The translations under genes and the position numbers were made by a program. The notes beneath the pieces are model-generated. The model was given only the letters and a program-made list of their open reading frames with translations, had not been told where the DNA came from and ran no database searches. A stretch of 64,000 bases of DNA, taken from the NCBI GenBank assembly GCA_052387675.1, contig JBQTIY010000007.1, positions 257,544-321,543 on the forward strand. The letters run 5' to 3'. Positions 2,254 through 36,611 of the stretch are shown here, piece after piece (position 1 is the stretch's first letter; each line of letters begins with the position of its first letter). The DNA comes from Planctomycetota bacterium (GTDB lineage: Bacteria > Planctomycetota > B15-G4).

Positions 2254-3050
2254 GCGGCCTCCACGGCGAAGGGCTTCATCTGGCGCGACTTGCCGGCCAG
2301 CGCGCGATCGACCAGACGCGGCAGCAGTGCGTTGAGTCGGACAAAAAACGGCTCGGCGCGCCCGAGATAACGGTCCTTGGCGTTGCGCTCGAGCGCTGAG
2401 ACAACCAGCCGCGCCACGACCTCGGGCCGATCGAGCGGCATGCCGGTGGCAGCGGCCATGCGGCCGAAGATCGTGGCCAGTGGCGTGGCGGTGGCGCGTG
2501 GCGCTACGTAGGTGACGCCGATGCCCGAACCTTGCAGCTCACGCCGCAAGGCCTCCGAGAAGCCGCGGATGGCGAACTTGCTGGCGCTGTAGCTCGCGAA
2601 CCAGGGGAAGGCGATCGAGCCGAAGATCGAACCCACATTGACGATGTGGCCCGAGCCCTGCGCCTGGAAGGTCGCCAGCACCTGCTGCGTGAGTAGCACC
2701 GGTGCGACGACGTTGATGCGAAAGGTGGCTTCGATGTCGGCTGGCCGTTCCAGCTCCAACGGTGCGAAGTCCAGCACGCCCGCGTTGTTCACCAGGATGT
2801 CGAGACCGCCCAAGGCCTCGACGGCGCGCCGCACCGTGCGCGGCAGTTCCTCGAGCCGCCCCAGATCGGCAGCCAGGGGCACAGCCTGGGCAGCCAGCGC
2901 GGGCGTCTCCTCGATGAGTCGGCGCAGCGCGGTCTCATCGCGATCGAGCAGCGCCAGGCGCGCCCCGCGTGCGGCCAGTTCGCGCGCCACGCATCGGCCG
3001 ATACCGCCGGCAGCGCCGGTCAAGAGGATCTTGGCTTGGTCGAGCTTCAT
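2238..3050 (-). CDS. Short-chain dehydrogenase/reductase (classical SDR)
   Basis: It has the TGAAGGIGR cofactor motif, NNAG, and the catalytic YSASKFAIRG (YxxxK). There is an ATGA overlap with the upstream ligase gene at 3047-3050. Confidence 0.9.
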   Translation of the reverse strand: MKLDQAKILLTGAAGGIGRCVARELAARGARLALLDRDETALRRLIEETPALAAQAVPLAADLGRLEELPRTVRRAVEALGGLDILVNNAGVLDFAPLELERPADIEATFRINVVAPVLLTQQVLATFQAQGSGHIVNVGSIFGSIAFPWFASYSASKFAIRGFSEALRRELQGSGIGVTYVAPRATATPLATIFGRMAAATGMPLDRPEVVARLVVSALERNAKDRYLGRAEPFFVRLNALLPRLVDRALAGKSRQMKPFAVEAACSRI

Positions 3051-5233
3051 GCACAGGCTCCCAGAGGTGCGCGGCTCGGCTGGGAGGCCGTCGGCAGCGC
3101 ACGGAAAACGTCGCCATAGAGGCGGAAGAAAACGCGGGCGGCATGCAGCACGGCCTGCCGGTCGGCCTCGCTGTCGAGGCGGTTCATGAGGGTTTCGAAG
3201 AAGGCCACGTGGCCTTGGTCGAGCGCACCGTGTGAGCTGAGGTAGCGCACGGCCCCATCCGGCAAGCCGAGTGAACGCTGCAGCCCAGCAGCAGCGCCGG
3301 TCGCGCCGCGCGCCGACACGCCTTCAAGCACATGGACCATGCCGAAGAAGCCCACCGGGTCGCCGCGCAGCACGGTGTCCCAGGCGTAGGCCACCATGAG
3401 TTCGCAGGGCAGGTCGGGCTTCCCGGCCGCGACAGCCTCTGCATCACCGCCGCACGCGGCGATGTCGTCCAGGATCCATTGCTGGTGGCCGGTCTCCTCG
3501 GCGATGTACTCGCCGATCGCGGCCCGCAGCCATTCGTGCCGGTCCGAGAGGCGCGCGCCCGTGGCCATGAGCAGCGGCACGGTGTGCTTCACGTGGTGAT
3601 AGGCCTGCGTGAGGAAGGCCACATAGGCCGGCAGGTCAAGCTCGCCGTGTACGGCGGCGCGCACGAAGGGAATGCGAAAGAAGTCCTCGCGCTGGGCGGC
3701 GGTTTCTGCGCAGAGACGGTCGTGAAAGGTCATGGGCGCTCTCGAGATGTGGGCGGGCAGGGGCGCGGGCAGAGTCAACAGGTGCGGGTAGGCGGTGGCC
3801 ACGGCCGCGCGACGGAGGCGACCGGCCACACTGAGCTGTCCATTGCTGGCGGAGAAGGGCGCGCTCGCCCGCACCCAGTACTCCACGCGGGCGTAATCGG
3901 GCAAACGGGCATTGGCCGAGTCGACGGCGGCCGCTAGCTCGTCATCCGTTGGACCAACATCCGCCGGCACAAGCACAGCGCGCGGTTGCGGCAAGCCATC
4001 CCCCAGCACGCAGGCCGCGGCGACCGCGGGGCTCGTGAGCAGTTCACGCTCCACCCACTCCGGCGAGAGCTTGCGACCGAAGGCTGTGCGCAGCACCGCG
4101 CTCTTGCGCCCGACCAGGCTCAGGTGACCGTGCTCGTCGAAGGCGCCCAGGTCACCTGTGGCCAGCCAGCCGTCACTGCGCAGCGGGGCGGGTTCGCCGC
4201 CCACATAGCCCAGCCACGCGGAACCACGCACGAGGACTTCGCGATCCTCAGCGAGCCGAACTTCCACGTGCGGCAGCGGCCGCCCGACTGTCCCTGCGTG
4301 CCGCGAGTCCGGGCGGTTGAGCGCAACGACTGAACCGGCCTCCGAGAGTCCGTAGCCTTCGAAGACCGGCAGTCCGAGGCGCTGCGCCCGCTCGAGCAGC
4401 TGCAGCGGCACCGGTGCGCCACCGACTCCTAGAAAGCGCAGCGCAGGCAAGCGCACGCCACGCTCAAGCTGCTCAACGATGAGCGCCAAGGTTTGCGGCA
4501 CGAGAATGGCGGTGGTCGCTTGCAGTTCAGCCAGAGAGGCCACGAGCAGGTCGCCGCGCTGCGCGCTGCTGCCGGCGAGGCCGATGCGCGAGGCGGGCGG
4601 CAGCACAACGCGTGCACCGGCCGACAGGCCCCGGTACAGCCCGCCGACGTTCTCGAGCAGCACGCTGAGTGGCAGCAGCGCGACGTGGACATCACTGGGC
4701 CCGATGCCGGTGGCCTGCACCAGCGAGCGGGTCACTTCGAGCAGGCCGACGTGCGACAGGCGCACGCCCTTCGGCTCGCCGGTCGTGCCGGATGTGAAGG
4801 TGACCTTCTCGCCGCCGCGCACCGCACTCGGCAGCGGCTCGGGCAGGCGGGCAAAGGCCAGCCCCTCCCGCAGAGAGACGAGTTCCGCGCCGGGGCCCAG
4901 CAGAGCCTCGGCGCGCGTGACCGCAGCGGCGTCCACGATGAGGCCGTTCAGGCCGGCGACGCCCAGCACATGGCGCAATTGAGCCGTCGTGAAGAAGTGC
5001 GGCAGCGGCACGAGCGCCGCGCCGAGCCGCTGAGCGGCGAGATCGGCCAGTGCCCAAGGCAGGCCATTGTCAGCCAACAAGCCGAGGGCGAGCCGGCCAG
5101 CCGCGAGTTCCTGGGTGCACAGCGTGGCCAGAGCGTCGGCGCACTCGGCAACGCGCCGCTCGCGCTCGGCGCGGTCCCAGACCTGGCCCACGCCGTCGTC
5201 GAGCAAGCCCTGCCAATCAGCCGAGGCGTTCAT
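3047..5233 (-). CDS. Fusion protein: acyl-CoA synthetase-like adenylating domain + C-terminal heme-oxygenase-like (Haem_oxygenas_2/TenA/PqqC-type) putative diiron domain
   Basis: The start is taken at ATG 5233 (MNASADWQ), which forms an ATGA overlap with the upstream stop at 5230; the ORF-track N-terminal 90 aa are Arg-rich shadow sequence. Adenylation motifs are FTSGTTGEPKG, FEGYGLSEAG and WLATGDLG..GHLSLVGRKS. The C-terminal ~220 aa (MTFHDRL...) carry His/carboxylate motifs AYHHVKH, IAEETGHQQW, MVHVLEGVS and HGALDQGHVAFF. There is no stop between the two domains. Confidence 0.8.
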   Translation of the reverse strand: MNASADWQGLLDDGVGQVWDRAERERRVAECADALATLCTQELAAGRLALGLLADNGLPWALADLAAQRLGAALVPLPHFFTTAQLRHVLGVAGLNGLIVDAAAVTRAEALLGPGAELVSLREGLAFARLPEPLPSAVRGGEKVTFTSGTTGEPKGVRLSHVGLLEVTRSLVQATGIGPSDVHVALLPLSVLLENVGGLYRGLSAGARVVLPPASRIGLAGSSAQRGDLLVASLAELQATTAILVPQTLALIVEQLERGVRLPALRFLGVGGAPVPLQLLERAQRLGLPVFEGYGLSEAGSVVALNRPDSRHAGTVGRPLPHVEVRLAEDREVLVRGSAWLGYVGGEPAPLRSDGWLATGDLGAFDEHGHLSLVGRKSAVLRTAFGRKLSPEWVERELLTSPAVAAACVLGDGLPQPRAVLVPADVGPTDDELAAAVDSANARLPDYARVEYWVRASAPFSASNGQLSVAGRLRRAAVATAYPHLLTLPAPLPAHISRAPMTFHDRLCAETAAQREDFFRIPFVRAAVHGELDLPAYVAFLTQAYHHVKHTVPLLMATGARLSDRHEWLRAAIGEYIAEETGHQQWILDDIAACGGDAEAVAAGKPDLPCELMVAYAWDTVLRGDPVGFFGMVHVLEGVSARGATGAAAGLQRSLGLPDGAVRYLSSHGALDQGHVAFFETLMNRLDSEADRQAVLHAARVFFRLYGDVFRALPTASQPSRAPLGACA

Positions 5234-5904
5234 GCGACGTGGCGTGCCAAAAGACGCCCCCGTGCGAAGGCCGCGTTCCACGCGGCCCCACAGGTGTCGA
5301 CCAAGCTTGCGTCGCGCGCGGCAACCGCTCGCATGGCCGCCACCGGCACGGCGGTGAGCCGCGGATCGGTTTCGTAGTAAGTGCCCCAGTCGGAGAGTCG
5401 GCCGCCCAAGCGCCGGCCATCGGCCTCGCCGAGATCTAGGAGTTGCAGGCCCATACGCAGGAAGGCCGCGCGCAGCGCGCGCGTGGCCGTGAATACGGAC
5501 CACTCGACTCCGGCGCCGTCGAGGAAGGCCGCCATGGTGCTGACGAGCGCGCGGCCCAAGCCGGGCGTCTGCCCACTGAGATTGCCGACCTCAGCCAGCA
5601 AACTGCGCGGCACCGCGCGGCCGAGCGCGCGCGAGAGAGCGCTCTCCACCGGCTCATCGAGATACTCCTCCAGAAACATGCGCGCCGGATCGCGGCCGAG
5701 CTGTGCGCCGATGACACCGGCCGGCACCTGGCGCGACACGCCGCTCGGCGCGGCAGCCTCCAGCCCGAGCAGAATCGGGAGCAGGTGCTCGATGCGGGCG
5801 CCGTAGCAGCGGGCGTAGACCTCTCGCACAGTGGCAGCCAGGACGTCGCGCTGCGAGGCGTGGTCAAGGCAGAGCTGCAGGCGCGGGCTTGGGGCGGGAG
5901 CCAT
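5230..5904 (-). CDS. Thermostable-hemolysin (T_hemolysin, GNAT-like fold) family protein
   Basis: It matches my recollection of the delta-VPH family signature: FLEEYLDEPVE, EVGNLSG, WSVFTAT..LRAAFLRMGLQLLDLGEAD, WGTYYETDP. The ATG at 5904 is preferred over the TTG ORF-track start at 5940. Confidence 0.7.
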   Translation of the reverse strand: MAPAPSPRLQLCLDHASQRDVLAATVREVYARCYGARIEHLLPILLGLEAAAPSGVSRQVPAGVIGAQLGRDPARMFLEEYLDEPVESALSRALGRAVPRSLLAEVGNLSGQTPGLGRALVSTMAAFLDGAGVEWSVFTATRALRAAFLRMGLQLLDLGEADGRRLGGRLSDWGTYYETDPRLTAVPVAAMRAVAARDASLVDTCGAAWNAAFARGRLLARHVA

Positions 5905-6007
5905 GGACGGCACTCGCGTGGGAGGCAGGACTGGTGACAACAGGTCTGGTCCTCTTGACGGCAGCAGGTGACACCAAGCTGAGTGACACCTTTGTCATGA
6001 GGCGCGG

Positions 6008-6676
6008 TCATGAGCGCAGCACCGCCAGCGCCGCCACCACGGCGACGGTCAGGAGCGCGCCGCGTTCCACGCGCAGCACGCGCCGCCAGGGATAGGCCGG
6101 CCGAGGCTGGACGGCCGTTTCAGGGGCCGGCGTCAGCGCGGAGGAGGGGCTGCGTGCAGGTCTGCCGCGCGGGATACGCGGCCACCAGCGCGGCACGCGC
6201 AGGCAATACGCTTGGTAGCTCGCGGGGTAGAGCCGTTCTAGCACTCCCTCTTCCCAGAGCACGATGCTGTGATACCAGGCCAGCGCCGCGACGCCGGCGC
6301 AGGGCGCGAGCCAAATCGGGCCGAGCATGAGCACCGTGCCCATCAAACCGCTGCAGTTGGCGAGGTAGAGCGGATTGCGCACGTAGGCGAAGGGACCGTC
6401 TTCGACGAGCACGCGTTGCTCCTGCGCCTTGAGGGCATGCACGCGGGCCGCGCCCCGGATGCTGCGGCAACTCCACAGGCGCACGGCGAGATAGGCGAAC
6501 AGCAGCACACCTCCCGCAGCAATTCCCCAGGCCTGAGCGCCGCCCAGCCACAGCGCCGTCAAGAAAAAAGGCGGGTGAATCCAGCGGCGGCGCTCGAAAA
6601 GGCCCGCGCCCCACTCGCTGGCTGCCGGCACTTCCACGGGAGATTCGGCGGGCGGTGGGCTGAACTGGCTGGGCAT
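6008..6676 (-). CDS. ICMT/PEMT-like membrane methyltransferase, paralog 1
   Basis: It is polytopic and carries GPFAYVRNPLYLAN and VLWEE..L...Y...Y..Y....PR, typical of the isoprenylcysteine carboxyl / phospholipid methyltransferase family. It has an extra C-terminal YPWRRV + TM tail. A paralog lies at 30186-30818. Confidence 0.75.
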   Translation of the reverse strand: MPSQFSPPPAESPVEVPAASEWGAGLFERRRWIHPPFFLTALWLGGAQAWGIAAGGVLLFAYLAVRLWSCRSIRGAARVHALKAQEQRVLVEDGPFAYVRNPLYLANCSGLMGTVLMLGPIWLAPCAGVAALAWYHSIVLWEEGVLERLYPASYQAYCLRVPRWWPRIPRGRPARSPSSALTPAPETAVQPRPAYPWRRVLRVERGALLTVAVVAALAVLRS

Positions 6677-6809
6677 CGGAGGCTCCGGCGTTTGGTCAGC
6701 GCCGGAAGTCCGGTGCTGACGTCACGCATTGAGCCCTGAATCCCCGCGCGAAGCCCGTTAAGGCTTCGTCATCTTCGAAGGGGCCGGCTCAGCCCGAGAG
6801 CGCGCCGCG

Positions 6810-7802
6810 TCAGCGCGAGAGCGCGCGCGTGATGTGCGGCAGCGAAGCCTCGTAGCGATAGCTCGTGCCGAAGTGGCCATCGTCGAACTCTTCGTGCAGC
6901 ACGGTGACGCCGACAGCGCGCAGCGCCGCTGCGAGTTGGCGCGCGCCGTAGTGCAACTGGTACTCGTCGCGCGTGCCGGCATCGAGGTAAACGAGACGGA
7001 AGTCGCGCAGGCCCGGGCCTTCGCGCGCAGCACGCTCCACCGGATCGCAAGCCAGCCAGCGCGCCCACGTCTGCGGCAGCAGCCGGCCGGTGCGCGGCTC
7101 GAAGGGCAGCGCCACGCCCAGCGGCTGCGCGGCGTCGGGCGAATACGCGGCCGCCATGGCGAGCACATTCATGGCCAAGACGAGCGGCGTCGTCTTGCGC
7201 GGCGCCGCTTCGAAGACTTCGACAAAGGCGCGCGCATCGCGGCAGTGTTCGAGCTGCGCGAGCAGCTTGGGGAAGTCGGGCTTGTAGCAGAGCTCGAAGC
7301 CCGCATCACCCGCGTGGCTCGCCAGTGCGGAGAAGAGCTCGGGATGCGCGAGGGAGAGATGCAGCGCGCCGTAGCCGCCCGAAGACTTGCCCATGAGCCC
7401 GCGCCGCTCGCGCCGGCCACCGGCACCGAACTCGGCCTCGACGCGCGGCAGGAGTTCCTGAAGCAGGTGGTCCTCGTAGCGACCCGTGGCTGGGCTGTTG
7501 CGGTACTGACTGCCTCCCAGCCGCGTGAAGGCGTCGGGGAAGGCGAAGACTGCCGGCGCGACGCGCCCGGCCGCCAACAGCCGCTCGTAGCGCTCCGGGA
7601 AGGACGGTTCCCAGGGCGTGCCCCGCAGTTGTCCGGCGCCCACCCCGGTGAAACCGGCCAGCACGAAGATGAGCGGCAGCCCGCGCGGATCGCGGTCCGG
7701 CGGCAGGTACACGGGCAGTTCACGGCGCGTCGGATCGCCCAGCGGATTGCCGGCCAGCACCGCACTGTCCACCACGAGCGTCTGCACGCGGCCTTCGATC
7801 AC
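6810..7802 (-). CDS. Alpha/beta-hydrolase of the putative-esterase family (enterochelin-esterase / S-formylglutathione-hydrolase-like)
   Basis: It has a GTG start, PVYLPPD...[11 protein letters not shown], the nucleophile elbow [10 protein letters not shown], and a C-terminal DDGHF histidine region. Confidence 0.75.
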
Positions 7803-26676: not shown

Positions 26677-28524
26677 CTAGATCGGCTGCAAGCGCGGGAA
26701 GAGCCGGCGCAGCGCCTCGCGCAGCCAGCCGTCGCTGCTCTCATCCACAACCGGCGGCTCATCGTCGTCGCCGCCGTCGCGCCGGTCGCGGCTGATGATC
26801 AGGATGCGTGCCCGCGAAATGGCGTTGTGCGCCAAGGGGCTGTCCACGCCGCGGATGCCTTCGCTCTCCGGCGTCACGTCGTGCAGCACGATGTGCACGC
26901 CCTGCACGCCGAGGAAGTCCTGCTCGGCCACGGCCGCCGGCTCGGTCCGCCGCACGTGCCGCTCCACCAAGCGCTCAAGCACGTCACGCACCTGCTGGGC
27001 GGTCACCGCGTCTTCGATGTAGAAGACATCGATGCCGGCGCGCGCCATGACTTCGTGCAGAAAGCGGCGTAGGCGCGTGCCGAGCACGGACTGATAGGAC
27101 TGGCCATAAGTCATCGCAGGCGGGCGGTCGCCCTCGCTGCGATCGTCGTCACGGGTGAGCCCCACCACCATCCAGCATTGCGGCACCAGAAAGGTGCCTT
27201 CGCCGCGGTCGCCGAAGCGCGGCCGCGCGGCGGCCAGCAGCCGCTCGATCGCCGCGATCGCGCGCCGGCCCTTGTCGCGCTCATCGGCCTCATCCAGCAC
27301 CAGAGCCGGGTCAGGAGCGAGCAGGAAGAGCGCGGCCGGCACACGCGCCAGTGGCACCGGGCAGGGCGGCATGAGGCCGGCCGGAATGCCGACGAGCAGA
27401 TCAGCATCCTCAGCCGAGGGCATGCTCTCGGAGACGATCAGCCGCCAGCCGGCGCGTTCGATCGCAAGGTGTTCGGCCTGCAGGCTGCCGCCCTCGGGAC
27501 CGGGCGCTGCCCAGAGCACGCGACTGCGCTCGAAGGCTGGATCGAAAAGCCGCCGGCGCCGGTTGAACTCCGCCGTGGCCAGCACCATGCCGCCAGTGAA
27601 GAGCCAGGCCGCCGACCAGCCGTAGACGGCCACCAGCAGATCGGTGAGCGGCGTGGCGCTGAGCTCGCCGGCCGCGGCGCGCGGCGGCGCGAGCAGGGCC
27701 ACGACGAGCAGCGCCAAAAGAGCCAGCAGCCGGTGCGTGTCGCGAATGAGTTCGCCCACCGGCGCGGTGCGCGGCCGGCTGTCCTTGCCGAAAGCAATGT
27801 TCAGCCACGGCGCGCCCGGCGGGTCCACGGCGCGCAGCACCGTGGGCAGCACGGCCGCGAAACCCAGCGCGGCGAGGCAACCCTGAATCCCCGCGGCCCG
27901 ATGCAGCGCCATGAGCAAAAGCGTGAGCAGCACGAGGCCGCCGGCCACCCTGCTGGCCCGCCAGAGCCCGCGCAGGCGCGTGCGCCCCTTGATGACCTCG
28001 AGCAGTCCGAGCAGGATCGCCGGCGTCTGCACCAGAATGCCGGTCAGCAGCAGCACCCACACCGCGCCGAGCAGCAGCACGTGTGCGGTGTACAGGCCGG
28101 GCCGGCGCAGCGCGAGGAGCAAGTCGCGCAGCAGGCCGTCGGCGGGCAGCAGCACCACCGCCGCAAGCAGGGCGGTGATGACCGCGCGGCGCAGCGTCGT
28201 GAAGGCCGGCAGGCGCGGATGCCGCTGCGGATGGAAGTCCAGCCCCAGGCTGAGCACGAGCCGGCCGCGCAGCCGCTGCACTGCGCCCAGCACCGTCTCC
28301 AGCAGGCCGCTGGTGAGCGGCAGGCTGCGGCGCCTCAGCAGCGAGCAGCCCACCAGGAAGAGTCCCGGCAGCAGCAGCACCAAGAGCACCGCATCCACGT
28401 CATCCGTGGCACGCGGTCCGGCCAGCTCGATGATCGCCACCGCCAGCAGCAGCAGCAGGATCTCCCCGTTGCCCGCCAGAGAGCGCAGGCGTGAGAGGAC
28501 CGGCGAGCGAAGCAGGGCGCGCAT
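26677..28524 (-). CDS. Polytopic membrane protein with a ~300-aa C-terminal soluble domain of unknown function
   Basis: 615 aa. The N-terminal ~310 aa hold at least 8 hydrophobic segments. The C-terminal domain (FLVPQCWMVVGLTRDDD, GIDVFYIEDAVTAQQVRDVLERL) matches nothing I recognise. Codon usage and length support a real gene. Confidence 0.6.
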   Translation of the reverse strand: MRALLRSPVLSRLRSLAGNGEILLLLLAVAIIELAGPRATDDVDAVLLVLLLPGLFLVGCSLLRRRSLPLTSGLLETVLGAVQRLRGRLVLSLGLDFHPQRHPRLPAFTTLRRAVITALLAAVVLLPADGLLRDLLLALRRPGLYTAHVLLLGAVWVLLLTGILVQTPAILLGLLEVIKGRTRLRGLWRASRVAGGLVLLTLLLMALHRAAGIQGCLAALGFAAVLPTVLRAVDPPGAPWLNIAFGKDSRPRTAPVGELIRDTHRLLALLALLVVALLAPPRAAAGELSATPLTDLLVAVYGWSAAWLFTGGMVLATAEFNRRRRLFDPAFERSRVLWAAPGPEGGSLQAEHLAIERAGWRLIVSESMPSAEDADLLVGIPAGLMPPCPVPLARVPAALFLLAPDPALVLDEADERDKGRRAIAAIERLLAAARPRFGDRGEGTFLVPQCWMVVGLTRDDDRSEGDRPPAMTYGQSYQSVLGTRLRRFLHEVMARAGIDVFYIEDAVTAQQVRDVLERLVERHVRRTEPAAVAEQDFLGVQGVHIVLHDVTPESEGIRGVDSPLAHNAISRARILIISRDRRDGGDDDEPPVVDESSDGWLREALRRLFPRLQPI

Positions 28525-28562
28525 GCCGGCATCTTAGCGGCGCAGCCTAGAATGCGCCGCTG

Positions 28563-29252
28563 ATGCCCACGCCCCGCGCCATCTTGCTCGATCTCGATGG
28601 CACCCTCATCGATGCCACCGACGCGCTCGCGGCCGGCATTCTCGAGCTGGCCGCGGAGGAAGGCCTCACCCCGCCGGGAGCCGCGGGCGGGCCAGGCGCT
28701 GCAGCCGCCGCTCAGGCTTGGGCGCGCGGCCGCGTGGGTTTTTCGCCTTACGAAACCTGGGCGCTGCTCGGCGCACGCGACCCCGAGGCGCTCGTCGGCC
28801 GCTTTCGCGCGCGCTACTTGCCGGGTCTGCCGGCGCGCACGCGCGTGATGGACGGGGCCCTCGCAGCACTCACGGCGCTCTCGGACGCCGGTCACCTGCT
28901 CGCCGTCGCCACCACACGGACCACCGACAGCGCCCGCGACACGCTGGCCCACGCGCAGTTGCTGCCCTTCATACGTTTCGTGGGCGGCGGCGATCTCGTT
29001 GAGCGCCACAAGCCGGCCCCCGATGTGCTGCTGCTGGCCCTGCGCGCGCTGAATTGCGCACCGCACGAGGCGCTCATGGTGGGCGATACGGCCGCCGACG
29101 TCTTGGCCGCCCGCGCGGCCGGCTGCCCCTGCTGGGCGGTGCTGGGCGGCACCCACGACGAGCAGACATTGCGCGAATCGGGCGCTGACCGCATCCTGTT
29201 TGGCGGGATCGCGGATCTGCCCGCGGCCCTCGCACGCCACGGGAGAGAGTGA
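28563..29252 (+). CDS. HAD-superfamily hydrolase (phosphoglycolate-phosphatase-like)
   Basis: Motif I is LLDLDGTLID, motif II is VATTR and motif IV is MVGDTAADVLAARAAG. Confidence 0.85.
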   Translation: MPTPRAILLDLDGTLIDATDALAAGILELAAEEGLTPPGAAGGPGAAAAAQAWARGRVGFSPYETWALLGARDPEALVGRFRARYLPGLPARTRVMDGALAALTALSDAGHLLAVATTRTTDSARDTLAHAQLLPFIRFVGGGDLVERHKPAPDVLLLALRALNCAPHEALMVGDTAADVLAARAAGCPCWAVLGGTHDEQTLRESGADRILFGGIADLPAALARHGRE

Positions 29253-29255
29253 CCT

Positions 29256-29723
29256 ATGTTTTGGAAAAAGAAGAGTGGAATGCTGAAGGTGGGCGACAAG
29301 GCCCCCGACTTTCATGTGCTGGATCACGAGGGCCGGCCGGTGAGCTTGGCAAGCTTCGCCGGCCAGCGCGTCTTGGTGTGGTTCTATCCCAAGGCCGACA
29401 CGCCGGGCTGCACGCTGGAGGGGCAGGGCTTCCGCGACCGCAGCGCGCAGATGCGCGCCGTCGGCGAGATCGTAGGCGTCTCTTTCGATGAGCCGGCCGC
29501 GAACAAGGCCTTCGTGGAGAAGCATCGCTTCCCCTTCCGGCTGCTCTGCGATCCGAGCAAGGCCATGAGCATGGCCTACGGCGCCTGCGCCGACGCCAGC
29601 GCCAAGTATCCCGACCGCATCACCTACATCATCGACAAGGACGGCGTCATTGAGTACGCCGAGAAAGTCACCGACATTGCGGCGCACGTTGATGCGGCCA
29701 CTGCACGGATGTGCGACGTATGA
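29256..29723 (+). CDS. bcp: Peroxiredoxin, Bcp type
   Basis: It has KVGDKAPDF, WFYPKADTPGCTLE (peroxidatic Cys) and GVSFDEPAANKAF. Confidence 0.9.
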   Translation: MFWKKKSGMLKVGDKAPDFHVLDHEGRPVSLASFAGQRVLVWFYPKADTPGCTLEGQGFRDRSAQMRAVGEIVGVSFDEPAANKAFVEKHRFPFRLLCDPSKAMSMAYGACADASAKYPDRITYIIDKDGVIEYAEKVTDIAAHVDAATARMCDV

Positions 29724-30229
29724 GCGCGGCGCTGCTCGCTCAACTCGAGGCGCCGATGCGGGCCGCGGCCGGCGCCAAGCTGGCCGATCCGGCCGCCGCG
29801 CGCGCAGCTCTGGCACGCGCCTTTCCGCACGATGGACCCGAGGGCCGCGCGCTGCGCGCGACGCTGCTCGCCGCGGTGCAGGCCGGCACGATCTGCGATC
29901 GCGGCAAGGACGCCATTCGCTACTCGCGCTTGGCGAAGCCCGAGGCCACGCCGCACGCGCTCTCGGTAGATTTTGTGTGGATGACCGGCCCGGGCATTTC
30001 GCACCGGCATCCGCGCGGCGAAGTGAACCTCTGTTACGCCGTGGAAGGCGATCCGCGCTTCGATGGACAGCCCGAGGGCTGGGTGGTTTTCCCGCCGGGC
30101 AGCGAGCACGTGCCCACGGTGAGCGGCGGACGCATGCTCATCGTTTACTTCCTGCCGGGCGGCGCCGTGGAATGGACGGCAGCCCCTACGAGCCCAGCGT
30201 CTGCCGGGCCCAAGCCAGAAGCGCGATGA
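29720..30229 (+). CDS. Cupin-like protein resembling the DUF4863 family
   Basis: There is an ATGA overlap with the bcp stop. HRHPRGEVNLCYAVEGDPRFDG...VFPPGSEHVPTVSGGRMLIVYFLPGG looks like a cupin metal site. The family name is from memory. Confidence 0.55.
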   Translation: MSAALLAQLEAPMRAAAGAKLADPAAARAALARAFPHDGPEGRALRATLLAAVQAGTICDRGKDAIRYSRLAKPEATPHALSVDFVWMTGPGISHRHPRGEVNLCYAVEGDPRFDGQPEGWVVFPPGSEHVPTVSGGRMLIVYFLPGGAVEWTAAPTSPASAGPKPEAR

Positions 30230-30818
30230 CCGCGACGAGCAGCACGGCGCTGCGCTCGGTCTTGAAGACCTTCTTCCAAGGGTAGGGCGGACGCTCGGCT
30301 GACCCGCTCGGTCGCGGGGGGCGCGGCAGGAAGCGCGGCACCGCGGCGCAGTAGGCGCGGAACTCGTCACCGTAGAGCCGCTGCAAGACGCGCTCCTCCC
30401 AGGCCACGACAGCGGCGTACCAAGCGAGGCAGGTCAGTGCGGCGAGGCTCGCCAGCCAGGCCGGCCCGAGCGCGAGGCAGGCGCCCGCCAGGCCGAGCGC
30501 ATTGGCGAGGTAGAGCGGATTGCGCACCCAGGCGAAGGGCCCGCTGGTGACGAGGACCTTGCGCTCTTGCGCCTTGCGCGAGTGCACGCGCACCGAGCCG
30601 CGTAAATGCCGACAGCACCACAGGCGCAGCAGCAGATGCAGCACAAGCAGGACCAGGCCTGCGGCGAGGCCCAGCGGTCGCGCACCGCCGAGCAAGGCTG
30701 CTGCCAGCACGAAGGGCAGATGCACCAAGCGCCGGTTGTCAAAGAGCCAGCCGCTTTCGCGCTCCGCTGCGCTGCCGGCAGGCGCGGCCGCGTCGGGTTC
30801 GACGAGCGGTGCGCTCAC
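30186..30818 (-). CDS. ICMT/PEMT-like membrane methyltransferase, paralog 2
   Basis: The GTG start at 30818 forms a GTGA overlap with the upstream stop at 30815. It carries GPFAWVRNPLYLAN, VAWEERVLQRLYGDEFRAYCAAVPRF, and a YPWKKV + TM tail like paralog 1. The ORF-track N-terminal 195 aa are shadow sequence. Confidence 0.75.
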   Translation of the reverse strand: MSAPLVEPDAAAPAGSAAERESGWLFDNRRLVHLPFVLAAALLGGARPLGLAAGLVLLVLHLLLRLWCCRHLRGSVRVHSRKAQERKVLVTSGPFAWVRNPLYLANALGLAGACLALGPAWLASLAALTCLAWYAAVVAWEERVLQRLYGDEFRAYCAAVPRFLPRPPRPSGSAERPPYPWKKVFKTERSAVLLVAVIALLAWARQTLGS

Positions 30819-32596
30819 GAGCGCCCCCGCGCGCCGGGCCCGGTCGCCTCGCCAGCGGCCGCCGCGGTGGCCGCGGCGCCGCCTGCTAGCACCGCTTCCA
30901 GTTGCTCCAAGACTTCGTACTTGCCGAGTCGCGGCGACGCACCACGCCTCGCGCGGCGACGCTGCTCGCGCCGCCGATCCAGCCGCCACATGAGGCGCCA
31001 GAAGGCCGAGCGCGGGTGCAGGTAACGGCGCACAGTTTCCTCGAGCAGTTCGCGCGCGCCATAGGCCTGCACGAAGAGGCGCAGATCCTCGGCGAAGTGG
31101 ACACCTGCGCCGATGCGCGCCAGCGAGCGCAAGCACTCGGCGACTTCCTTGGCCACGAGCGGGCGCAAGTCGCCGCGGCGCACATAAGCATTCTCCAAGT
31201 CGAAGCTCACCAGCCGCTCGCCGCTGACCAGGACGTGGTCGAGACTGCCGTGCTCCTGGATGAGGCCCGACTCTTGCCGCTCCAGCGCGAGCCGGTGCCG
31301 CTGGGCGAGCGTGCGCGCGAAGCGCCCCAGCAAAGTGCGGCGCGTGGCCGCGGACAGGCCGGGCTCTTCGAGTGCGGCGTGCAGCGAGCGGCCCTCGATC
31401 CACTCCAGGATCCGTGTGCGGGGATTGACGAGGCCGGGGTGCTGGTCCGCGAGTTCGCGCGGCACGTCGAAACCCGCCGCGCGCCAGAGCGCCAGCAGCC
31501 GCCCCTCAGTGGCCCGCCGCGCCGCGCCGGAGGGCCGGCTCTTGCCGCCACGCAGCGCGTAGCCGAGTTCGCGCACGCAGCGCGTGACGAAGGGACCGCG
31601 CTCACCGTAGTACTTCTGCACCACCGGGCCGCGCGCCGTCTCCACGCGCCACACGCGATTGCCTTGCAGCGCTCCGGTGGGCAGCACTCCGGTGGGCACG
31701 CTGCGCCGCCCGCCGGTCAGCGAGGCCGCGTCCAGGCGCCGGCGCAGATCCAGCGCCACGGCGTATTTGCTCCAGCGACTCTGGTGCTTGGGCTTGAGCC
31801 GGTAATCGAGCCGGCGCCCCAAGCGAATGAACAGATTCCCGTTGCGGAAGGCGTGCTCCCAGGCCGCGAGCAGCAGCGTCTTGTCGGGGTAGTGCGCCAC
31901 GAGTTCATCGAGCAGCTCTGCGTACTTCTCGGCGCCGAAAAACTTTCCGCAGGAGCGCAAGTAGGCCAAGAGCTCGCGCCCCACCAGGTCGCGGACCTTG
32001 CGCGAAGTGAAGCAGATCTCGAAATCAAAGTACGTGAAGCCGCCCTGCCAGAGCATGACGTGCTTCATGTCGCCGTTCTCGTGGATCAGGCGCGGCTCAC
32101 CCAGCGCCACGGCCAGTTCGTGCCGACGGTGCCACTCGCCGACGAAGCGCCGCCACGTGGCGAGGCGCTCGGGCCAGGGCACGCTTTCGTCCACGAAGTA
32201 CTCGCGGAAGTGCCGGCCGGGCGTCCAGTCGTAGAGCATGTAGCCCTGCTCGGGCAGCCCCTCCACGCGCACTTCGGGATGCATCCCGAAGCAGCGAAAG
32301 CCGTGGCGCTCCCAGAGCCGGATGCACTCGGTCTCTTGGCGGAAGCGCGCGCGCGGCATGTGCGAGCTGCGCCCGGTGAGCAGCCGATTGCCGAGCGTCT
32401 TCTTCCAGTGCAAGAGCGCGCCGCGGCTGCCGAAATAGACCTTGAGCACGGCGGCGCCGTCGGTGCCGCCGGCGAAGGGAATCTTCCAGACGAAGTTGCC
32501 TTCGCCGGCCAGCGCCTCGCGCGGCAATTCGCTGAGACGCAAGCTCCGAGGCGCGGGAGCGGGCGCAGCGGGGTCCGACGCGACACCTGTCGTCAT
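30815..32596 (-). CDS. Protein with two tandem protein-kinase-like (Kdo/WaaP lipopolysaccharide-kinase / RIO-like) domains
   Basis: The start ATG 32596 forms an ATGA overlap with the upstream stop. Domain 1 has AAVLKVYFG (beta3 Lys), LIHENGDMKHVML and YFDFE. Domain 2 has PVVQKYYGE, LIQEHGSLDHVLV and SFDLENA. The tail is basic, Arg-rich and Ala-rich. Confidence 0.65.
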   Translation of the reverse strand: MTTGVASDPAAPAPAPRSLRLSELPREALAGEGNFVWKIPFAGGTDGAAVLKVYFGSRGALLHWKKTLGNRLLTGRSSHMPRARFRQETECIRLWERHGFRCFGMHPEVRVEGLPEQGYMLYDWTPGRHFREYFVDESVPWPERLATWRRFVGEWHRRHELAVALGEPRLIHENGDMKHVMLWQGGFTYFDFEICFTSRKVRDLVGRELLAYLRSCGKFFGAEKYAELLDELVAHYPDKTLLLAAWEHAFRNGNLFIRLGRRLDYRLKPKHQSRWSKYAVALDLRRRLDAASLTGGRRSVPTGVLPTGALQGNRVWRVETARGPVVQKYYGERGPFVTRCVRELGYALRGGKSRPSGAARRATEGRLLALWRAAGFDVPRELADQHPGLVNPRTRILEWIEGRSLHAALEEPGLSAATRRTLLGRFARTLAQRHRLALERQESGLIQEHGSLDHVLVSGERLVSFDLENAYVRRGDLRPLVAKEVAECLRSLARIGAGVHFAEDLRLFVQAYGARELLEETVRRYLHPRSAFWRLMWRLDRRREQRRRARRGASPRLGKYEVLEQLEAVLAGGAAATAAAAGEATGPGARGRS

Positions 32597-34515
32597 GGCC
32601 GACCGCTGTCGAGGAGCCGCACGAACTCGCTCGGCTCGGCCTTGAGCACGAGCAGATCGTCGTGCTGCTCGAGCAGGCCGCGCACGCGTAGCGGCTCGGC
32701 CACGCGATCCAGGATCTCGGCGTTGAGGGCGCGGCCGTCGCGCCCAACCAAGAGCAAGCCCGCCTCGCCGCCCTCCGACAGACGCACGAGCAGCAGCACC
32801 GGCAGGCCGCCACTCAGACAGCGCACGGCGCAGGCGCGATGCGTGCGCGTGTCCGCCGGCACCATGACACCGAAGTGGCACTTGCTGTCCACGATCTCGC
32901 CGACCACTTCGATCTCGCCCAGGACCAGCGCCGCAGGCGGCGGCTCGGCGGGCGCGCCGGCAGCGGCGGCCGACAGCTCTAGCGCCGACGTTTCGGCAGA
33001 GGCCGGCAGCACCATCGGCGCGTCGGCAAGTTCGAGCATGACCTGACCCTGGCGATGGACGAGTGAGCCGCGCAGGCGCACAGTCTGCCCGTCGAGGCCG
33101 GCCACAAGCGACTCGGCGCCGTGCTTGCCCGGCGCCACGAGCAGATAACGCGACACGAGCGGCACCGCGTGGCCGGCCACGAGTCCTGGCCGCCGCACGC
33201 GCAGCGAGGGCGTCGGCTGCTCGGCGAGCTGGCCCTCAAAGTCGCGCACGATCCCAAACTCGAAGTCTGCGGGTTGGAAGGGTCCCAGCGCGGCGGCCAG
33301 GCCGGCCGCGAGCAGGGACACCACGAGCAAGAGCAGAAGCGAGCTGCGTCGCAGCGCGCGCGCCACCGAGGCCGCCGCCGGCAGGTAGCCGATGTAGAAG
33401 GGCTCCACGCCCTTCGCGCGCGTTTGCTCGGACGCGCAGCGCGCCGGCTCTTGCGGCGTGCCCGCCGGCGCCGGGCGGGGGTCCACCTGCACGCGTCCCT
33501 CCACGAGCCGCACGCGATAGGTCGCCACGCGCTCGGTGAAAGGCGGCGGCGAGCAGCCGTCTTCGGGGCGGTACTGGTAACCATGCCAGGGGCACGTCAC
33601 GCAGCCGTCCACGATGCGTCCCTCGCCGAGCGGTCCGCCTTGATGCCGGCAGACATTGCTCAGTGCGGCGACGCGGCCCTGCCAGCGAAAGATCGCCACG
33701 CGCTCGCCGGAAAGCAGCACGACTCGCGCTCGGTCCTCGGGAATCTCCGACGCGAGGCCGGTGTCCACCCAGTCGACTTCGGCGGCGGCAGGCGTCGGCC
33801 GCTGTGCACCAGCACCGCCCGCGCCCGCCGCAGCGCGCTCTGTGCCGCTCCGGTCGCCTCGGCGCTCCCGCAGTCCCGCAGCGAGGTGCCAGCCGCCCAC
33901 CCAGAGCACACCAAGGCCGAGCAGAGCCGCGCGCGTCCATCCGACTTCATCTTGCAGCACGCCGAAGCCCACATGGAGCACGAGCAAGAGCCAGGCCACG
34001 TAGACCAGCATGTGCAGCGCCTTCCACAGCGGGGCGCCGAGATTCGCGAGCCAGAAGTCATGGCTCGTGGCGGCCATGAGGGACAGGATGAGCAGCGCCG
34101 CCGCACCGAAGATCTGGAAGGGCAGGCGTTGCAAACTGTCCCAGGCCGACTCGGCTGTGAGCAGCGAGACGAGCGGGTTCACGTCGCCGAGGGCGTGATA
34201 TTGGAAGAGCGCGAATGCGCCGTGCAGGGCCGCCAGGCAGAACATCGCCACGCCGAGGTGGCGGCGGTTGTAGAGCAGCGGCAGCCAGCGCGGCTGGAAG
34301 CGACAGAGCGGGCCGAGCGTGAGAATCAGGTGCAGCAGGATGATGGCGCCGCTGCCGGTGGCGCGCAGGATCAGCGTCTCGGCGGTGGCCTGCGGATGCA
34401 GCGCCGCGCCGACGCCCAGAAACACGCCGAGATAGAGCAAAGCGCCGGCGAGCAGCACCAAGTCATAGCGCTGCTTGTTGCGGTTCCAGCTCACCGCGCG
34501 ATAGCCGACGCTCAC
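32593..34515 (-). CDS. Fusion: ferric-reductase-like di-heme TM domain + Rieske [2Fe-2S] domain + TM + Cys/His-containing C-terminal domain
   Basis: The GTG start at 34515 forms a GTGA overlap. The 6-TM N-domain has conserved His residues (LLHLILTLGP, NRRHLGVAMFCLAALHG, WKALHMLVYVAWLLLVLH). The Rieske motif is CRHQGGPLGEGRIVDGCVTCPWHGY (CxH-x16-CxxH). An extra TM segment (LLLLLVVSLLAAGLAAAL) follows, and the C-terminal domain contains GEIVDSKCHFGVM...HRACAVRCLSGG. Confidence 0.8.
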   Translation of the reverse strand: MSVGYRAVSWNRNKQRYDLVLLAGALLYLGVFLGVGAALHPQATAETLILRATGSGAIILLHLILTLGPLCRFQPRWLPLLYNRRHLGVAMFCLAALHGAFALFQYHALGDVNPLVSLLTAESAWDSLQRLPFQIFGAAALLILSLMAATSHDFWLANLGAPLWKALHMLVYVAWLLLVLHVGFGVLQDEVGWTRAALLGLGVLWVGGWHLAAGLRERRGDRSGTERAAAGAGGAGAQRPTPAAAEVDWVDTGLASEIPEDRARVVLLSGERVAIFRWQGRVAALSNVCRHQGGPLGEGRIVDGCVTCPWHGYQYRPEDGCSPPPFTERVATYRVRLVEGRVQVDPRPAPAGTPQEPARCASEQTRAKGVEPFYIGYLPAAASVARALRRSSLLLLLVVSLLAAGLAAALGPFQPADFEFGIVRDFEGQLAEQPTPSLRVRRPGLVAGHAVPLVSRYLLVAPGKHGAESLVAGLDGQTVRLRGSLVHRQGQVMLELADAPMVLPASAETSALELSAAAAGAPAEPPPAALVLGEIEVVGEIVDSKCHFGVMVPADTRTHRACAVRCLSGGLPVLLLVRLSEGGEAGLLLVGRDGRALNAEILDRVAEPLRVRGLLEQHDDLLVLKAEPSEFVRLLDSGRP

Positions 34516-35075
34516 GGTTGGTCGTCGAGCCTCTCGACGCCGCGCGGGAAGAAGGCCCGCGCGATCTCCTCGGCCTGCGCGAGGCTGTACAGGATGAGGT
34601 GTCCGGCCTCGCCGACTCGCTCCTTGGGCAGGCGGAAGTGCCCGGCGCCATCGCCGCGCAGCGCGCCGAGCAAGTAGGCCGAGCCGAGCCGGGCCTCCAG
34701 ATCGCCCGCGCGCGACGTCACGCCTGTCTCGTCGGGCAGCCAGTAGAGCAGCACGTCCGGCCGGCGCAGCGCCGTCAGCGGGGTCAACTCCAGCCAGAAG
34801 CCGTCATCGCCACTCTGCGCCTCGGGCCGCCAGAGCCGGGTACGAATCGCCGCGCCCTCCCAAAGATCGTCGCGCTCCCAGGCCGGCGGCGCCGCAGACG
34901 AGGCCTTGAGCTCAATCGCTCCGAGCGTTTCGAGTGCAGCGCGCGGCTGGACTCCGTCCCACACCTCATCGTTGTTGCGAGAACGCGCGTCCAGCGCCAA
35001 GAGCAGGCCCACGAAGGCCAGCGGCGCGATGACCGCGAGCGTGCGCAGATGCCGGCGGCGCAGACGGAAGTTCAT
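34512..35075 (-). CDS. N-terminally anchored hypothetical protein (187 aa)
   Basis: The start ATG 35075 forms an ATGA overlap with the upstream stop. It has the TM segment LAVIAPLAFVGLLLAL and then a soluble domain with no recognisable motif. Confidence 0.55.
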   Translation of the reverse strand: MNFRLRRRHLRTLAVIAPLAFVGLLLALDARSRNNDEVWDGVQPRAALETLGAIELKASSAAPPAWERDDLWEGAAIRTRLWRPEAQSGDDGFWLELTPLTALRRPDVLLYWLPDETGVTSRAGDLEARLGSAYLLGALRGDGAGHFRLPKERVGEAGHLILYSLAQAEEIARAFFPRGVERLDDQP

Positions 35076-35296
35076 CGCGCCGAATCCGTTGCCGGCGCGT
35101 TGACCGCGCGCCACCAGCGCATCAGCAGCAGAGGCCAGAAGGCGGCGGCGCCGGGCAGGATGAGCAGGCGGAAGCCCCAGGTTGCAGAACGCGCTCCCGC
35201 GTCCACTCGCTGCACGCCGATCGCTACGAAGACCAGCGCGAACACCAGCCCCGCCAAGGCGTAGGCAGCCAGCACCGCCACGAATCCCTCGACCAT
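35072..35296 (-). CDS. Small two-TM membrane protein (74 aa), first gene of the operon
   Basis: The ATG at 35296 is preceded by a GGAGG RBS. The sequence is MVEGFVAVLAAYALAGLVFALVFVAIGV...WGFRLLILPGAAAFWPLLLMRWW. The ORF-track upstream extension is not supported. Confidence 0.45.
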   Translation of the reverse strand: MVEGFVAVLAAYALAGLVFALVFVAIGVQRVDAGARSATWGFRLLILPGAAAFWPLLLMRWWRAVNAPATDSAR

Positions 35297-35459
35297 CGCG
35301 AAGCCTCCGTTCACCGTCGCGAATGATAACGAGGACGCTAGCGCGAAATCGCCCGCTCCCTTAGGCTGGCCAGCCCTTTGCATCTCGGCCCCGAGGACTC
35401 GGCCCTCACCGCTTGGGCCGACCTCGACCGACCTCGGCCCCACCACGGAGATCCTCGGC

Positions 35460-36611
35460 ATGAAGACCCTGCTCGCCTGCGCCTTCGCTGTCTCGATGCT
35501 CGCCACCACCGCATTCGGTCAGGTGCGCTATCGCGCCGACCTTGACGGCTTCCAGGAAGCACCCGTGGCCGTGCCCGGCACGCTCGCCGGCGGCTGGGGC
35601 ACCTTCGATCTCAACACGACCACCAATCGCATCACCTACTCGGTGCGCACCTGGGGCCTCACCGCCACCATGGCGCACGTGCACCTCGGCGCGCCGGGCG
35701 TGGCCGGCGGCATCGTCTTCGCACTCAGTGGCGGCCCGGTGAACTTCTCCGGCCTCTCGCCCGTGCTCACGGCCGCTCAGTTGTCCGCGCTGGAGGCGGG
35801 CAACCTCTACGTGAACGTGCACACCGCAGCGAACCCCGCCGGTGAAATCCGCGGACAGCTCTACCTGAACCCGCGTGTCTTCGGCACGGTGCTGGATCAG
35901 GCGCAGGAAACGCCGGTCCCGCTGCCCTCGGCCGCCACCGGCACCGGCAACTTCTCGCTCAACGCGGGCAACACGCTCAATTACTCCGTGAACACGGCGG
36001 GACTCTCCGGCCCAGCCTTCGCTGCGCACTTGCACGGCGCTCTCTTCGGCGTGCCAGGCGGCATCGAGGTCAACATGACGCCCGGCCCCACCTCCTGGAA
36101 CGGCACCTCGCTCGCTCTGTCACTGGGACAGATCGAGGAGCTGCAGAACAAAGGCTGGTACGCCAACGTGCACACCGCGTTGAACCCCGGCGGTGAGATC
36201 CGCGGCCAACTCGTGCCGAGCGGCATTCCCTACGGCCCGCCGAGCGACCCGCCCACCGGCACGATCACGCTGCGCTCCACCGGCGCGCCCACCGACCTCG
36301 GCGGCGGCGGCGTCTTCAACGTAGACATCACCAAGGCCAAGCCCTTCGGCCTCGGCTACATCTTTGTTGGCCTCGCCCCGGACTCGCTGATGTTCAAGGA
36401 CGAGCCGATGCTGGTGAACCTCGGCACCGTCTTCAGCACGGTCTTGGTTCCCTTCAACGGTGTCGGCGAACTGCACGGCAGCGCGCTGACGCCGCCGCTG
36501 AGCGGCTCGGTGGACCTCTGCCTGCAGGTCTTCGGTCTCGATGTGACCGCGCCGAACGGCAAGTTCAACGTGAGCAACGGACTCATCATCCCGTTCTCGC
36601 ACTTCCCGTAA
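35460..36611 (+). CDS. Secreted protein with two CHRD domains + the recurrent C-terminal module
   Basis: The signal peptide is MKTLLACAFAVSMLATTAFGQ. CHRD signatures are AHVHLGAPGVAGGIVFAL...NVHTAANPAGEIRGQL and AHLHGALFGVPGG...NVHTALNPGGEIRGQL. For the C-terminal ~100 aa, see findings. Confidence 0.8.
   Translation: MKTLLACAFAVSMLATTAFGQVRYRADLDGFQEAPVAVPGTLAGGWGTFDLNTTTNRITYSVRTWGLTATMAHVHLGAPGVAGGIVFALSGGPVNFSGLSPVLTAAQLSALEAGNLYVNVHTAANPAGEIRGQLYLNPRVFGTVLDQAQETPVPLPSAATGTGNFSLNAGNTLNYSVNTAGLSGPAFAAHLHGALFGVPGGIEVNMTPGPTSWNGTSLALSLGQIEELQNKGWYANVHTALNPGGEIRGQLVPSGIPYGPPSDPPTGTITLRSTGAPTDLGGGGVFNVDITKAKPFGLGYIFVGLAPDSLMFKDEPMLVNLGTVFSTVLVPFNGVGELHGSALTPPLSGSVDLCLQVFGLDVTAPNGKFNVSNGLIIPFSHFP

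Follow-up and report, generated by a model that had tools for sequence, protein, structure and literature searches.

We analysed a stretch of 64,000 nt (the window, GC content 70%) from a Planctomycetota bacterium (GenBank assembly GCA_052387675.1, contig JBQTIY010000007.1, positions 257,544 to 321,543 of the forward strand), in which five open reading frames (ORFs) on the minus strand, here named genes A to E, form an uninterrupted chain. Gene A (35072-35296) encodes a protein of 74 aa with two transmembrane (TM) segments, gene B (34512-35075) a single-pass protein of 187 aa and gene C (32593-34515) a protein of 640 aa that combines a ferric-reductase-type domain, a Rieske domain, a further TM helix and tandem OB-folds. 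These are followed by gene D (30815-32596), whose 593-aa product consists of two protein-kinase-like domains, and by gene E (30186-30818), encoding a methyltransferase of the PEMT family with 210 aa. Each gene is linked to the next by an overlap of 4 nt between stop and start codon, which is ATGA for A/B (35072-35075) and C/D (32593-32596) and GTGA for B/C (34512-34515) and D/E (30815-30818). A preliminary description of this DNA had located the five ORFs and the four overlaps at exactly these positions and had interpreted the chain as a single stoichiometric machine, plausibly for the modification of an envelope lipid or glycolipid. Our comparison with other genomes suggests that the chain is probably a lineage-specific splice of two independent modules, a putative electron-conduit cassette A-B-C and a pair D-E that would modify a membrane-bound acceptor.

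The gene calls were checked by base composition and alignment. In genes A to E the GC content is 0.83-0.87 at the third codon position (GC3) and about 0.5 at the second. The ORFs of D and E can be extended further upstream, and there GC3 amounts to 0.44-0.53, so that these extensions are regarded as non-coding in that frame and the proposed starts are supported. The N-termini of A, B and C line up with the starts of their respective families, and a GGAGG motif is located 7 nt upstream of gene A. At the other end of the chain, the 3′ end of E overlaps a convergent PnbB-like gene by 44 nt.

Distribution of the two modules and origin of the chain

For the comparison we surveyed 80 genomic loci with a gene of the C family from at least ten phyla, searching all ORFs with iterated profiles; neighbours were counted as hidden Markov model (HMM) matches to all ORFs within 8 kb around the cassette. 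The surveyed lineages comprise Planctomycetota, Acidobacteriota, Bacteroidota, Cyanobacteriota, Verrucomicrobiota, Gemmatimonadota, Alphaproteobacteria and others. A homologue of A was found directly upstream of the C homologue in all 80 loci, and in about 70 of them a homologue of B lies between the two. Of the 80 loci, 50 encode C in two separate pieces, C1 (ferric-reductase-type and Rieske domains, about 345 aa) and C2 (TM helix and tandem OB-folds, about 255 aa). In every locus examined C2 is present with an invariant motif of Cys, His, Met and Lys residues, either fused or as the next gene. Overlaps of 4 nt recur in other phyla (37 of 55 scorable junctions for A/B and 13 of 27 for B/C), which means that the coupling inside A-B-C is conserved. 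A-B-C1-C2 is a self-contained, ancient and widespread cassette. No homologue of D occurs within 8 kb of it in any of the 80 loci, and a homologue of E is found in a single locus, 6 kb off, on the opposite strand and unlinked.

The two halves of D are termed D1 (residues 1-299; 31700-32596) and D2 (residues 300-593; 30818-31699). With 7 word-based and 294 HMMER matches their family is much rarer than the C family, and nearly all of its members are single-domain proteins of 270-300 aa. D1 exists as a stand-alone gene of 290-360 aa in the loci L092, L087, L093, L003 and others. About 20 loci have a D1-type gene with a D2-type gene directly behind it, and the family always occurs as such a D1-D2 pair. 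D1 and D2, which are normally two genes side by side, are fused in gene D. Most of the D1-D2 loci are without any gene combining a ferric-reductase-type and a Rieske domain.

The joining of both modules can be followed among the relatives of the window, which share the synteny of TruB and of a divergent CHRD gene next to A-B-C. Two of them (L092 and L097) have genes for a histidine kinase and a response regulator behind C, in convergent orientation; separate D1 and D2 genes come next, and in L092 also a PEMT gene. In L093, with a D1 that is 76% identical to that of the window, a divergent response regulator stands beside separate D1 and D2 genes, and L090 and L091 carry A-B-C with neither D nor E downstream. 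The ATGA junction between C and D was observed in the window and in one relative of 94% identity (L094) only, the overlap of D and E in the window only. Since there are relatives that keep a two-component system between C and D1 as well as separate D1 and D2 genes, the five-gene chain is recent and results from deletion and fusion. The ancestor of this Planctomycetota clade possessed both modules as neighbouring co-directional operons with a convergent two-component system between them; loss of the two-component genes and fusion of D1 with D2 then produced one translationally coupled transcript.

That all five proteins work as one stoichiometric envelope machine, jointly modifying an envelope lipid or glycolipid, is highly improbable in the light of these data. 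Complete translational coupling in the window and the shared C/D junction in L094 speak for such a machine, as does the proximity of both modules, though separated, in L092 and L097. Moreover, there is a loose lipid theme in other phyla, with OlsB-type N-acyltransferase genes in 17 of the 80 cassette loci (directly downstream in 8) and PlsC-type acyltransferase genes in 10. However, D is missing from the surroundings of the cassette in the 80 loci and E occurs there once, unlinked, most D1-D2 pairs do without a redox gene of the C type, and in the close relatives the modules are separated by the convergent two-component genes or the second one is absent. The gene-neighbourhood survey had been proposed in the preliminary description as a test that could refute the five-protein machine, and its outcome, no linkage of the cassette with D or E in the 80 loci, contradicts that idea. 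Of the obligate coupling claimed there, the part concerning A/B and B/C was borne out, whereas C/D and D/E proved to be restricted to the window and, for C/D, to L094. As an accident of gene order, the five-gene arrangement should not seed a new pathway model.

A splice of two independent modules has to be weighed against the observation that no more than about 2.5 kb separates A-B-C from D1-D2 in at least three related Planctomycetota. Within that clade a functional link between the modules may exist.

The A-B-C cassette

Residues 1-216 of C (33868-34515) form the six-TM ferric-reductase-type domain, delimited by Pfam, invariant histidines and hydropathy; PF01794 (Ferric_reduct) matches residues 54-179 with E 5e-13 and 49.5 bits against a cut-off of 28. 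In an alignment of 26 diverse homologues the His pairs H86/H98 in TM3 and H168/H181 in TM5 are invariant, as are H62, H107 and H152. In the ferric-reductase family four His ligate the haems, one pair being located in TM3 and the other in TM5 (PMC3591440), and the pairs of C, placed in predicted TM helices with a spacing in the range of 12-14 residues, follow this rule and would be suited to hold two b haems. The Rieske [2Fe-2S] domain comprises residues 247-345 (33481-33777). It is supported by PF00355 (residues 249-333; E 6e-16, 58.5 bits against a cut-off of 20.3) and by its ligands C289-x-H291 and C308-x2-H311, which are invariant in the same alignment. The domain belongs to the ferredoxin/NirD type, with dioxygenase ferredoxins and NirD as best matches in NCBIfam and the PDB. 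A high-potential Rieske protein of the bc1/b6f type was ruled out, as the motif CRHQGGP...CPWHGY is without the extra disulfide Cys pair that marks this type (C-x-H-x-G-C ... C-x-C-H).

Hydropathy and the positive-inside rule predict for C a cytoplasmic N-terminus and six TM helices, so that the Rieske domain, coming after TM6, is placed in the cytoplasm; TM helix 7 then leads the remainder of the protein into the periplasm. The remainder corresponds to C2 (residues 375-640; 32596-33393), for which an AlphaFold2 model (pLDDT 88.5) shows a TM helix at about residues 384-410 followed by two OB-fold barrels. The second barrel bears a helical insert with the invariant residues K545-C546, M551-x-P553 and H559-x2-C562-x3-C566 (nt 32800-32883), so that the invariant site can be written as Cys-x12-His-x2-Cys-x3-Cys (Cys3-His). 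In a Foldseek search of the PDB the two-OB single-stranded DNA-binding protein (SSB) of Thermus and PriB were the best matches, and archaeal RPA was among the matches listed, which are OB-fold proteins; a search of the C2 profile against PDB sequences returned nothing significant. The stand-alone C2 homologues of about 255 aa are likewise without a Pfam domain. The earlier assignment of C as a His-rich six-TM protein with Rieske domain, extra TM helix and Cys/His-containing C-terminal domain is confirmed by Pfam, by the invariant residues and by topology; the C-terminal domain itself can now be specified as a pair of OB-folds preceded by a TM helix. Members of the C family, which yielded more than 3,700 database matches (protein clusters), are conserved across their full length; no homologue was present in the phage collection searched.

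Genes A and B gave no meaningful match in Pfam or NCBIfam (A) and neither a Pfam match nor a significant PDB sequence match (B). Gene A belongs to an unannotated family with TM segments at residues 8-26 and 41-59 and with G16, F19, F23, P48, W54 and P55 invariant in the alignment. Gene B starts with a conserved cytoplasmic motif M-x4-R-x2-H, in which R6 and H9 are invariant, followed by a TM helix and by a poorly conserved, beta-rich periplasmic domain. Two forms of B are observed in the family: a short one of 31-74 aa without the periplasmic domain and a long one of 125-183 aa, to which the B of the window with its 187 aa belongs. The profile of the B family found only noise-level matches to antibody V domains in the PDB, and hhalign detected no relationship between B and C2.

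On this basis module 1 probably constitutes a redox complex of the membrane that contains about ten TM segments and is built from A (two TM), the single-pass B, the six-TM, putatively bis-haem C1 with its Rieske domain and the single-pass, tandem-OB C2; in the window, C1 and C2 are fused. A cytoplasmic reductant would feed the Rieske centre of C1, presumably of the low-potential type, and electrons would then cross the membrane from an inner haem (H86/H168) to an outer haem (H98/H181). The final acceptor would be located in the periplasm at or near C2, most likely as a metal ion held there or as a thiol/metal centre. Judged by analogy to MsrQ, NOX and STEAP, an outward direction of the electron transport is likely. 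We tentatively propose that A-B-C1-C2 represents an unrecognised four-subunit, Rieske-fed transmembrane reductase, which would lead from the cytoplasm to a periplasmic Cys3-His metal site and might act as a cupric or ferric reductase in envelope metal and redox homeostasis, distinct from MsrPQ, NOX and STEAP. To our knowledge, such a cassette reductase would also differ from the cupric reductase CcoG.

The likeness to known systems is restricted to parts of the cassette. Like MsrQ, NOX, FRE and STEAP, C has six TM helices, of which TM3 and TM5 provide His pairs that fit two b haems, and it shares with NOX the position of the electron-input module, cytoplasmic and after TM6, from which outward flow is expected. 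MsrQ receives its electrons from the flavin reductase Fre, which is a donor of another kind. In contrast to the superfamily, C would take its input from a fused Rieske [2Fe-2S] domain rather than from an FNR-type FAD/NADPH module, and the cassette includes three further obligate components without annotation, A, B and C2. C was ruled out as a NOX enzyme, as Pfam detects only Ferric_reduct and Rieske in it and no FAD- or NADPH-binding domains. C2, with N-terminal TM anchor, OB barrels and ligand-type Cys, His and Met residues, resembles membrane-anchored periplasmic OB proteins; CcmE and CusF are examples of periplasmic OB-fold proteins, with which C2 is compared here independently of the search matches. 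It differs from these two by the tandem arrangement and the Cys3-His insert, and its best structural matches are SSB and PriB. The combination of ferric-reductase-type and Rieske domains has already been catalogued, without a function, as model M4 in a survey from 2013 (PMC3591440). This was the only result of our literature searches for such a system, in which no description of the cassette or of its partners turned up.

Two points weigh against a periplasmic reductase for metals. First, the role of the Cys3-His site could be to bind zinc for structural reasons only, as in some OB-folds, rather than to accept electrons. Second, the surroundings of the cassette vary widely, each accessory gene being confined to about 30% of the loci or fewer, and the link to metal stress is weak. 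If C2 were structural only, module 1 might instead reduce O2 to superoxide or peroxide at the outer haem as a Rieske-fed analogue of NOX, or run in reverse and import electrons from a periplasmic donor to the Rieske centre. We consider this unlikely: the bis-haem-type core of C is the same as in NOX, and structural zinc sites are known from some OB-folds of the RPA kind, to which one of the Foldseek matches mentioned above belongs, but the constant presence of C2 with its invariant motif argues for a dedicated periplasmic acceptor, and a Rieske domain of the ferredoxin type, lacking the disulfide cysteines, is more in keeping with a low-potential donor than with an acceptor. Very improbable is a variant of MsrPQ, with the ferric-reductase-type domain acting like MsrQ on a periplasmic molybdoenzyme that repairs oxidised proteins; MsrQ is the best named NCBIfam match of the TM domain (E 1.5e-13) and metagenome annotators name C homologues YedZ/MsrQ haem subunit, but the MsrQ/YedZ model (NF003831) scores 50.8 bits, far under its cut-off of 130, no MsrP-type gene is among the recurrent neighbours in the 80 loci, and we know of no described MsrPQ system that includes A, B or a tandem-OB C2, the invariant partners in module 1, or a fused Rieske domain. 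On the low score and the neighbourhood data, the cassette was rejected as an MsrPQ system.

A candidate transmembrane reductase would find a weak echo in the gene neighbourhood, which leans to redox and metal stress. Besides the acyltransferases, the recurrent neighbours in the 80 loci are DinB-like proteins (26), ATP-grasp (25), SDR (23) and TANGO2 (19) proteins as well as YHS and DoxX proteins (17 each). Rieske-fused thiamine pyrophosphate (TPP) enzymes and GltS-type oxidoreductases are encoded directly upstream of the cassette in 7-9 loci. Genes for an extracytoplasmic function (ECF) sigma factor and Metal_resist lie near the cassette in Flagellimonas, and ECF sigma/NrsF genes or a CopD-family gene in Rhizobium.

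In Flavobacteria (Flagellimonas aquimarina, L024, 759-13288; also L033, L036 and L081) the cassette is embedded in a long cluster on one strand. The first part of this cluster encodes, in this order, an ECF sigma factor, a Metal_resist protein (Spy/CpxP-like), a Rieske-GltS-type oxidoreductase of the flavin mononucleotide (FMN) kind, a Na/H exchanger and a Rieske-TPP enzyme. A-B-C1-C2 comes next, and genes for a periplasmic YHS protein, LysE, a DinB-like protein, TANGO2/NRDE and ATP-grasp make up the rest. Such a cluster might be an island for redox or biosynthetic functions that is induced by stress. On plasmids of Rhizobium binae (L110; NZ_CP071606.1, 6905-10510) and in R. leguminosarum (L111; NZ_CP007050.1) the order is SDR-A-B-C1-C2 with the short form of B, followed by a gene for a membrane protein of 70 aa; adjacent to it are a CopD-family protein or a TetR regulator, an ECF sigma factor and an NrsF-type anti-sigma factor. 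RefSeq labels A, B and C2 on Rhizobium plasmids as hypothetical proteins. The OlsB-type N-acyltransferase genes (Acetyltransf_5) that directly follow the cassette are often accompanied by a PlsC-type gene; they were found 3′ of C2 in L039, L043, L056, L066, L077 and others, which belong to Acidobacteriota, Gemmatimonadota and KSB1. An aminolipid link of the cassette is possible from these neighbours.

The cassette is deeply conserved in thousands of bacteria of at least ten phyla, cultured Rhizobium and Flavobacteria among them, and three of its four components are without family annotation. Should it prove to reduce a defined acceptor in the periplasm across the membrane, it would add a new design of input and output to the class of MsrQ, NOX and STEAP, and it could explain a part of the periplasmic handling of metals and redox equivalents in bacteria. 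The cultured rhizobia that carry the cassette are genetically tractable hosts.

Genes D and E and the flanking sequence

The two halves of D are paralogues (hhalign probability 100%, E 6e-75). D1 conserves K52 (beta3), E88 (alphaC) and D191-x-E193 at the DFG position, and in D2 the corresponding residues K328, E364 and D466-x-E468 are invariant. An AlphaFold2 model of D2, that is of the C-terminal half of D only (pLDDT 90.7), is bilobal, and all Foldseek matches listed for it in the PDB have protein-kinase-like folds (kinases and one pseudokinase), with WaaP (6dfl_A, E 3.8e-5) as the best of them; the TM-scores of the model to known kinases, however, reach only 0.4-0.5. D thus combines the features by which a protein-kinase-like fold is recognised, the bilobal architecture, the beta3 Lys, the alphaC Glu and the Asp at the DFG position, with the fold itself taken from the D2 model. 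These features are shared with WaaP/Kdo kinases, APH, MTR kinase, RIO and Bud32, and they agree with the view of D as two WaaP-like kinase folds that each retain the beta3 Lys.

The domain families expected for the five proteins were found for C and E (PF01794, PF00355, PF04191 and PF04140), whereas the two expected copies of PF06293 in D were not: a search of D against Pfam and NCBIfam gave no match to a kinase family, PF06293 included, and the MmcB-like family was listed below its cut-off. A PDB sequence search with D was also without matches. Of 59 members of the D family, 6 weakly match APH and 3 Kdo (PF06293) in Pfam. Apart from the missing Pfam match, D is distinguished from WaaP/Kdo-type kinases by its organization as a D1-D2 pair and by its catalytic loop. 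In place of the canonical H-x-D-x4-N, which neither half contains, the loop reads H-E-N...H179 in D1 and Q-E-H...H454 in D2; as consensus of the family, H-E-x...H was obtained for D1 and Q-E-H...H for D2. The Glu beside the usual Asp position is conserved in both halves.

In five other loci (L086, L092, L096, L102 and L103) the gene next to D1-D2 on its 3′ side is for a PEMT, in four (L002, L003, L005 and L089) for a sulfotransferase, which suggests that the D1-D2 pair serves different group-transfer enzymes in different lineages. The sulfotransferase genes, located 3′ of D1-D2, are of the Sulfotransfer_1/3 type, and L003 contains in addition a GT61 glycosyltransferase gene.

In the window this position is taken by E, which matches PEMT (PF04191; E 4e-14, 53.3 bits against a cut-off of 25) and ICMT (PF04140; E 2e-6, 28.3 bits against 24). 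Both profiles being above cut-off, its assignment as an ICMT/PEMT-like methyltransferase holds, and E is predicted to be a small polytopic membrane protein acting as an S-adenosylmethionine-dependent methyltransferase of the PEMT family. In these respects it is similar to PmtA/PEMT, OlsG, LmtA and ICMT. However, all scores to the curated equivalogs of NCBIfam are below cut-off, with 41.2 bits against 160 for isoprenylcysteine methyltransferase and 34.8 against 325 for LmtA. In S. acidiphila, the PEMT-family gene of OlsG shares its operon with the genes of OlsH (GH3) and OlsI (alpha/beta hydrolase) (PMC12493201). E, flanked by D and the convergent PnbB-like gene instead of OlsH and OlsI, was rejected as an OlsG on this gene context.

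Module 2 would accordingly comprise cytoplasmic tandem kinase-like domains (D) followed by a membrane methyltransferase (E), and its probable substrate is an acceptor bound to the membrane, which it would modify at the inner leaflet, on the cytoplasmic side. One possibility is a phosphorylation with subsequent O- or N-methylation of a lipid or glycolipid; such a target is plausible for D-E only. The loss of the canonical catalytic-loop Asp in both halves speaks against this assignment, and D may not be a phosphotransferase at all. It could be a catalytically dead pseudokinase scaffold, or use ATP for a chemistry other than phosphoryl transfer, and recruit or regulate the adjacent PEMT or sulfotransferase. 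The replacement of the H-x-D Asp, a His at the Asn position and the heterodimer-like pairing of D1 and D2 are in line with this explanation, which we rate as possible, if rather doubtful. Against it stand the beta3 Lys, the alphaC Glu and the DFG-position Asp, invariant in both halves, together with the conserved Glu of the catalytic loop; as a sequence pattern, this Lys/Glu/Asp/Glu set would fit retained binding of nucleotide and metal and possibly catalysis. In either case, D1-D2 is an unannotated family of paired kinase-like proteins with an atypical catalytic loop, whose methyltransferase or sulfotransferase partners point to an unknown modification of the envelope or of a metabolite.

Upstream of the chain, the region between gene A and a divergent gene for a CHRD-domain protein (35297-35459) presumably holds the operon promoter. 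A promoter scan found no sigma-70-like promoter, this region included. The Rfam scan of the whole window detected no element, and the terminator scan gave a single match, on the plus strand, which is fewer than in shuffled sequence. The divergent gene (35460-36611, plus strand) encodes a secreted protein with two CHRD domains. Its arrangement with A-B-C is kept in L090, L091 and L092, and CHRD was found in none of the 80 loci of other lineages.

Downstream of E there is a block (26677-30229) consisting of the PnbB-like gene (29711-30229) and of genes for an AhpC/Bcp peroxiredoxin, an HAD phosphatase and a membrane protein of 615 aa, the latter without any Pfam domain. In L086 the same block stands 3′ of the PEMT gene, and in L092 a part of it does.

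The window contains a second PEMT-family gene (6008-6676) within another packed chain on the minus strand (2238-7802). This chain encodes an esterase (6810-7802), the PEMT, an unknown protein of 191 aa (5436-6011), a fusion of AMP-binding and Haem_oxygenas_2 domains (3047-5503) and an SDR protein (2238-3050). Its layout recalls the OlsI-OlsG-OlsH ornithine-lipid operon of Singulisphaera, and the PEMT encoded here, rather than E, may be the OlsG-like enzyme.

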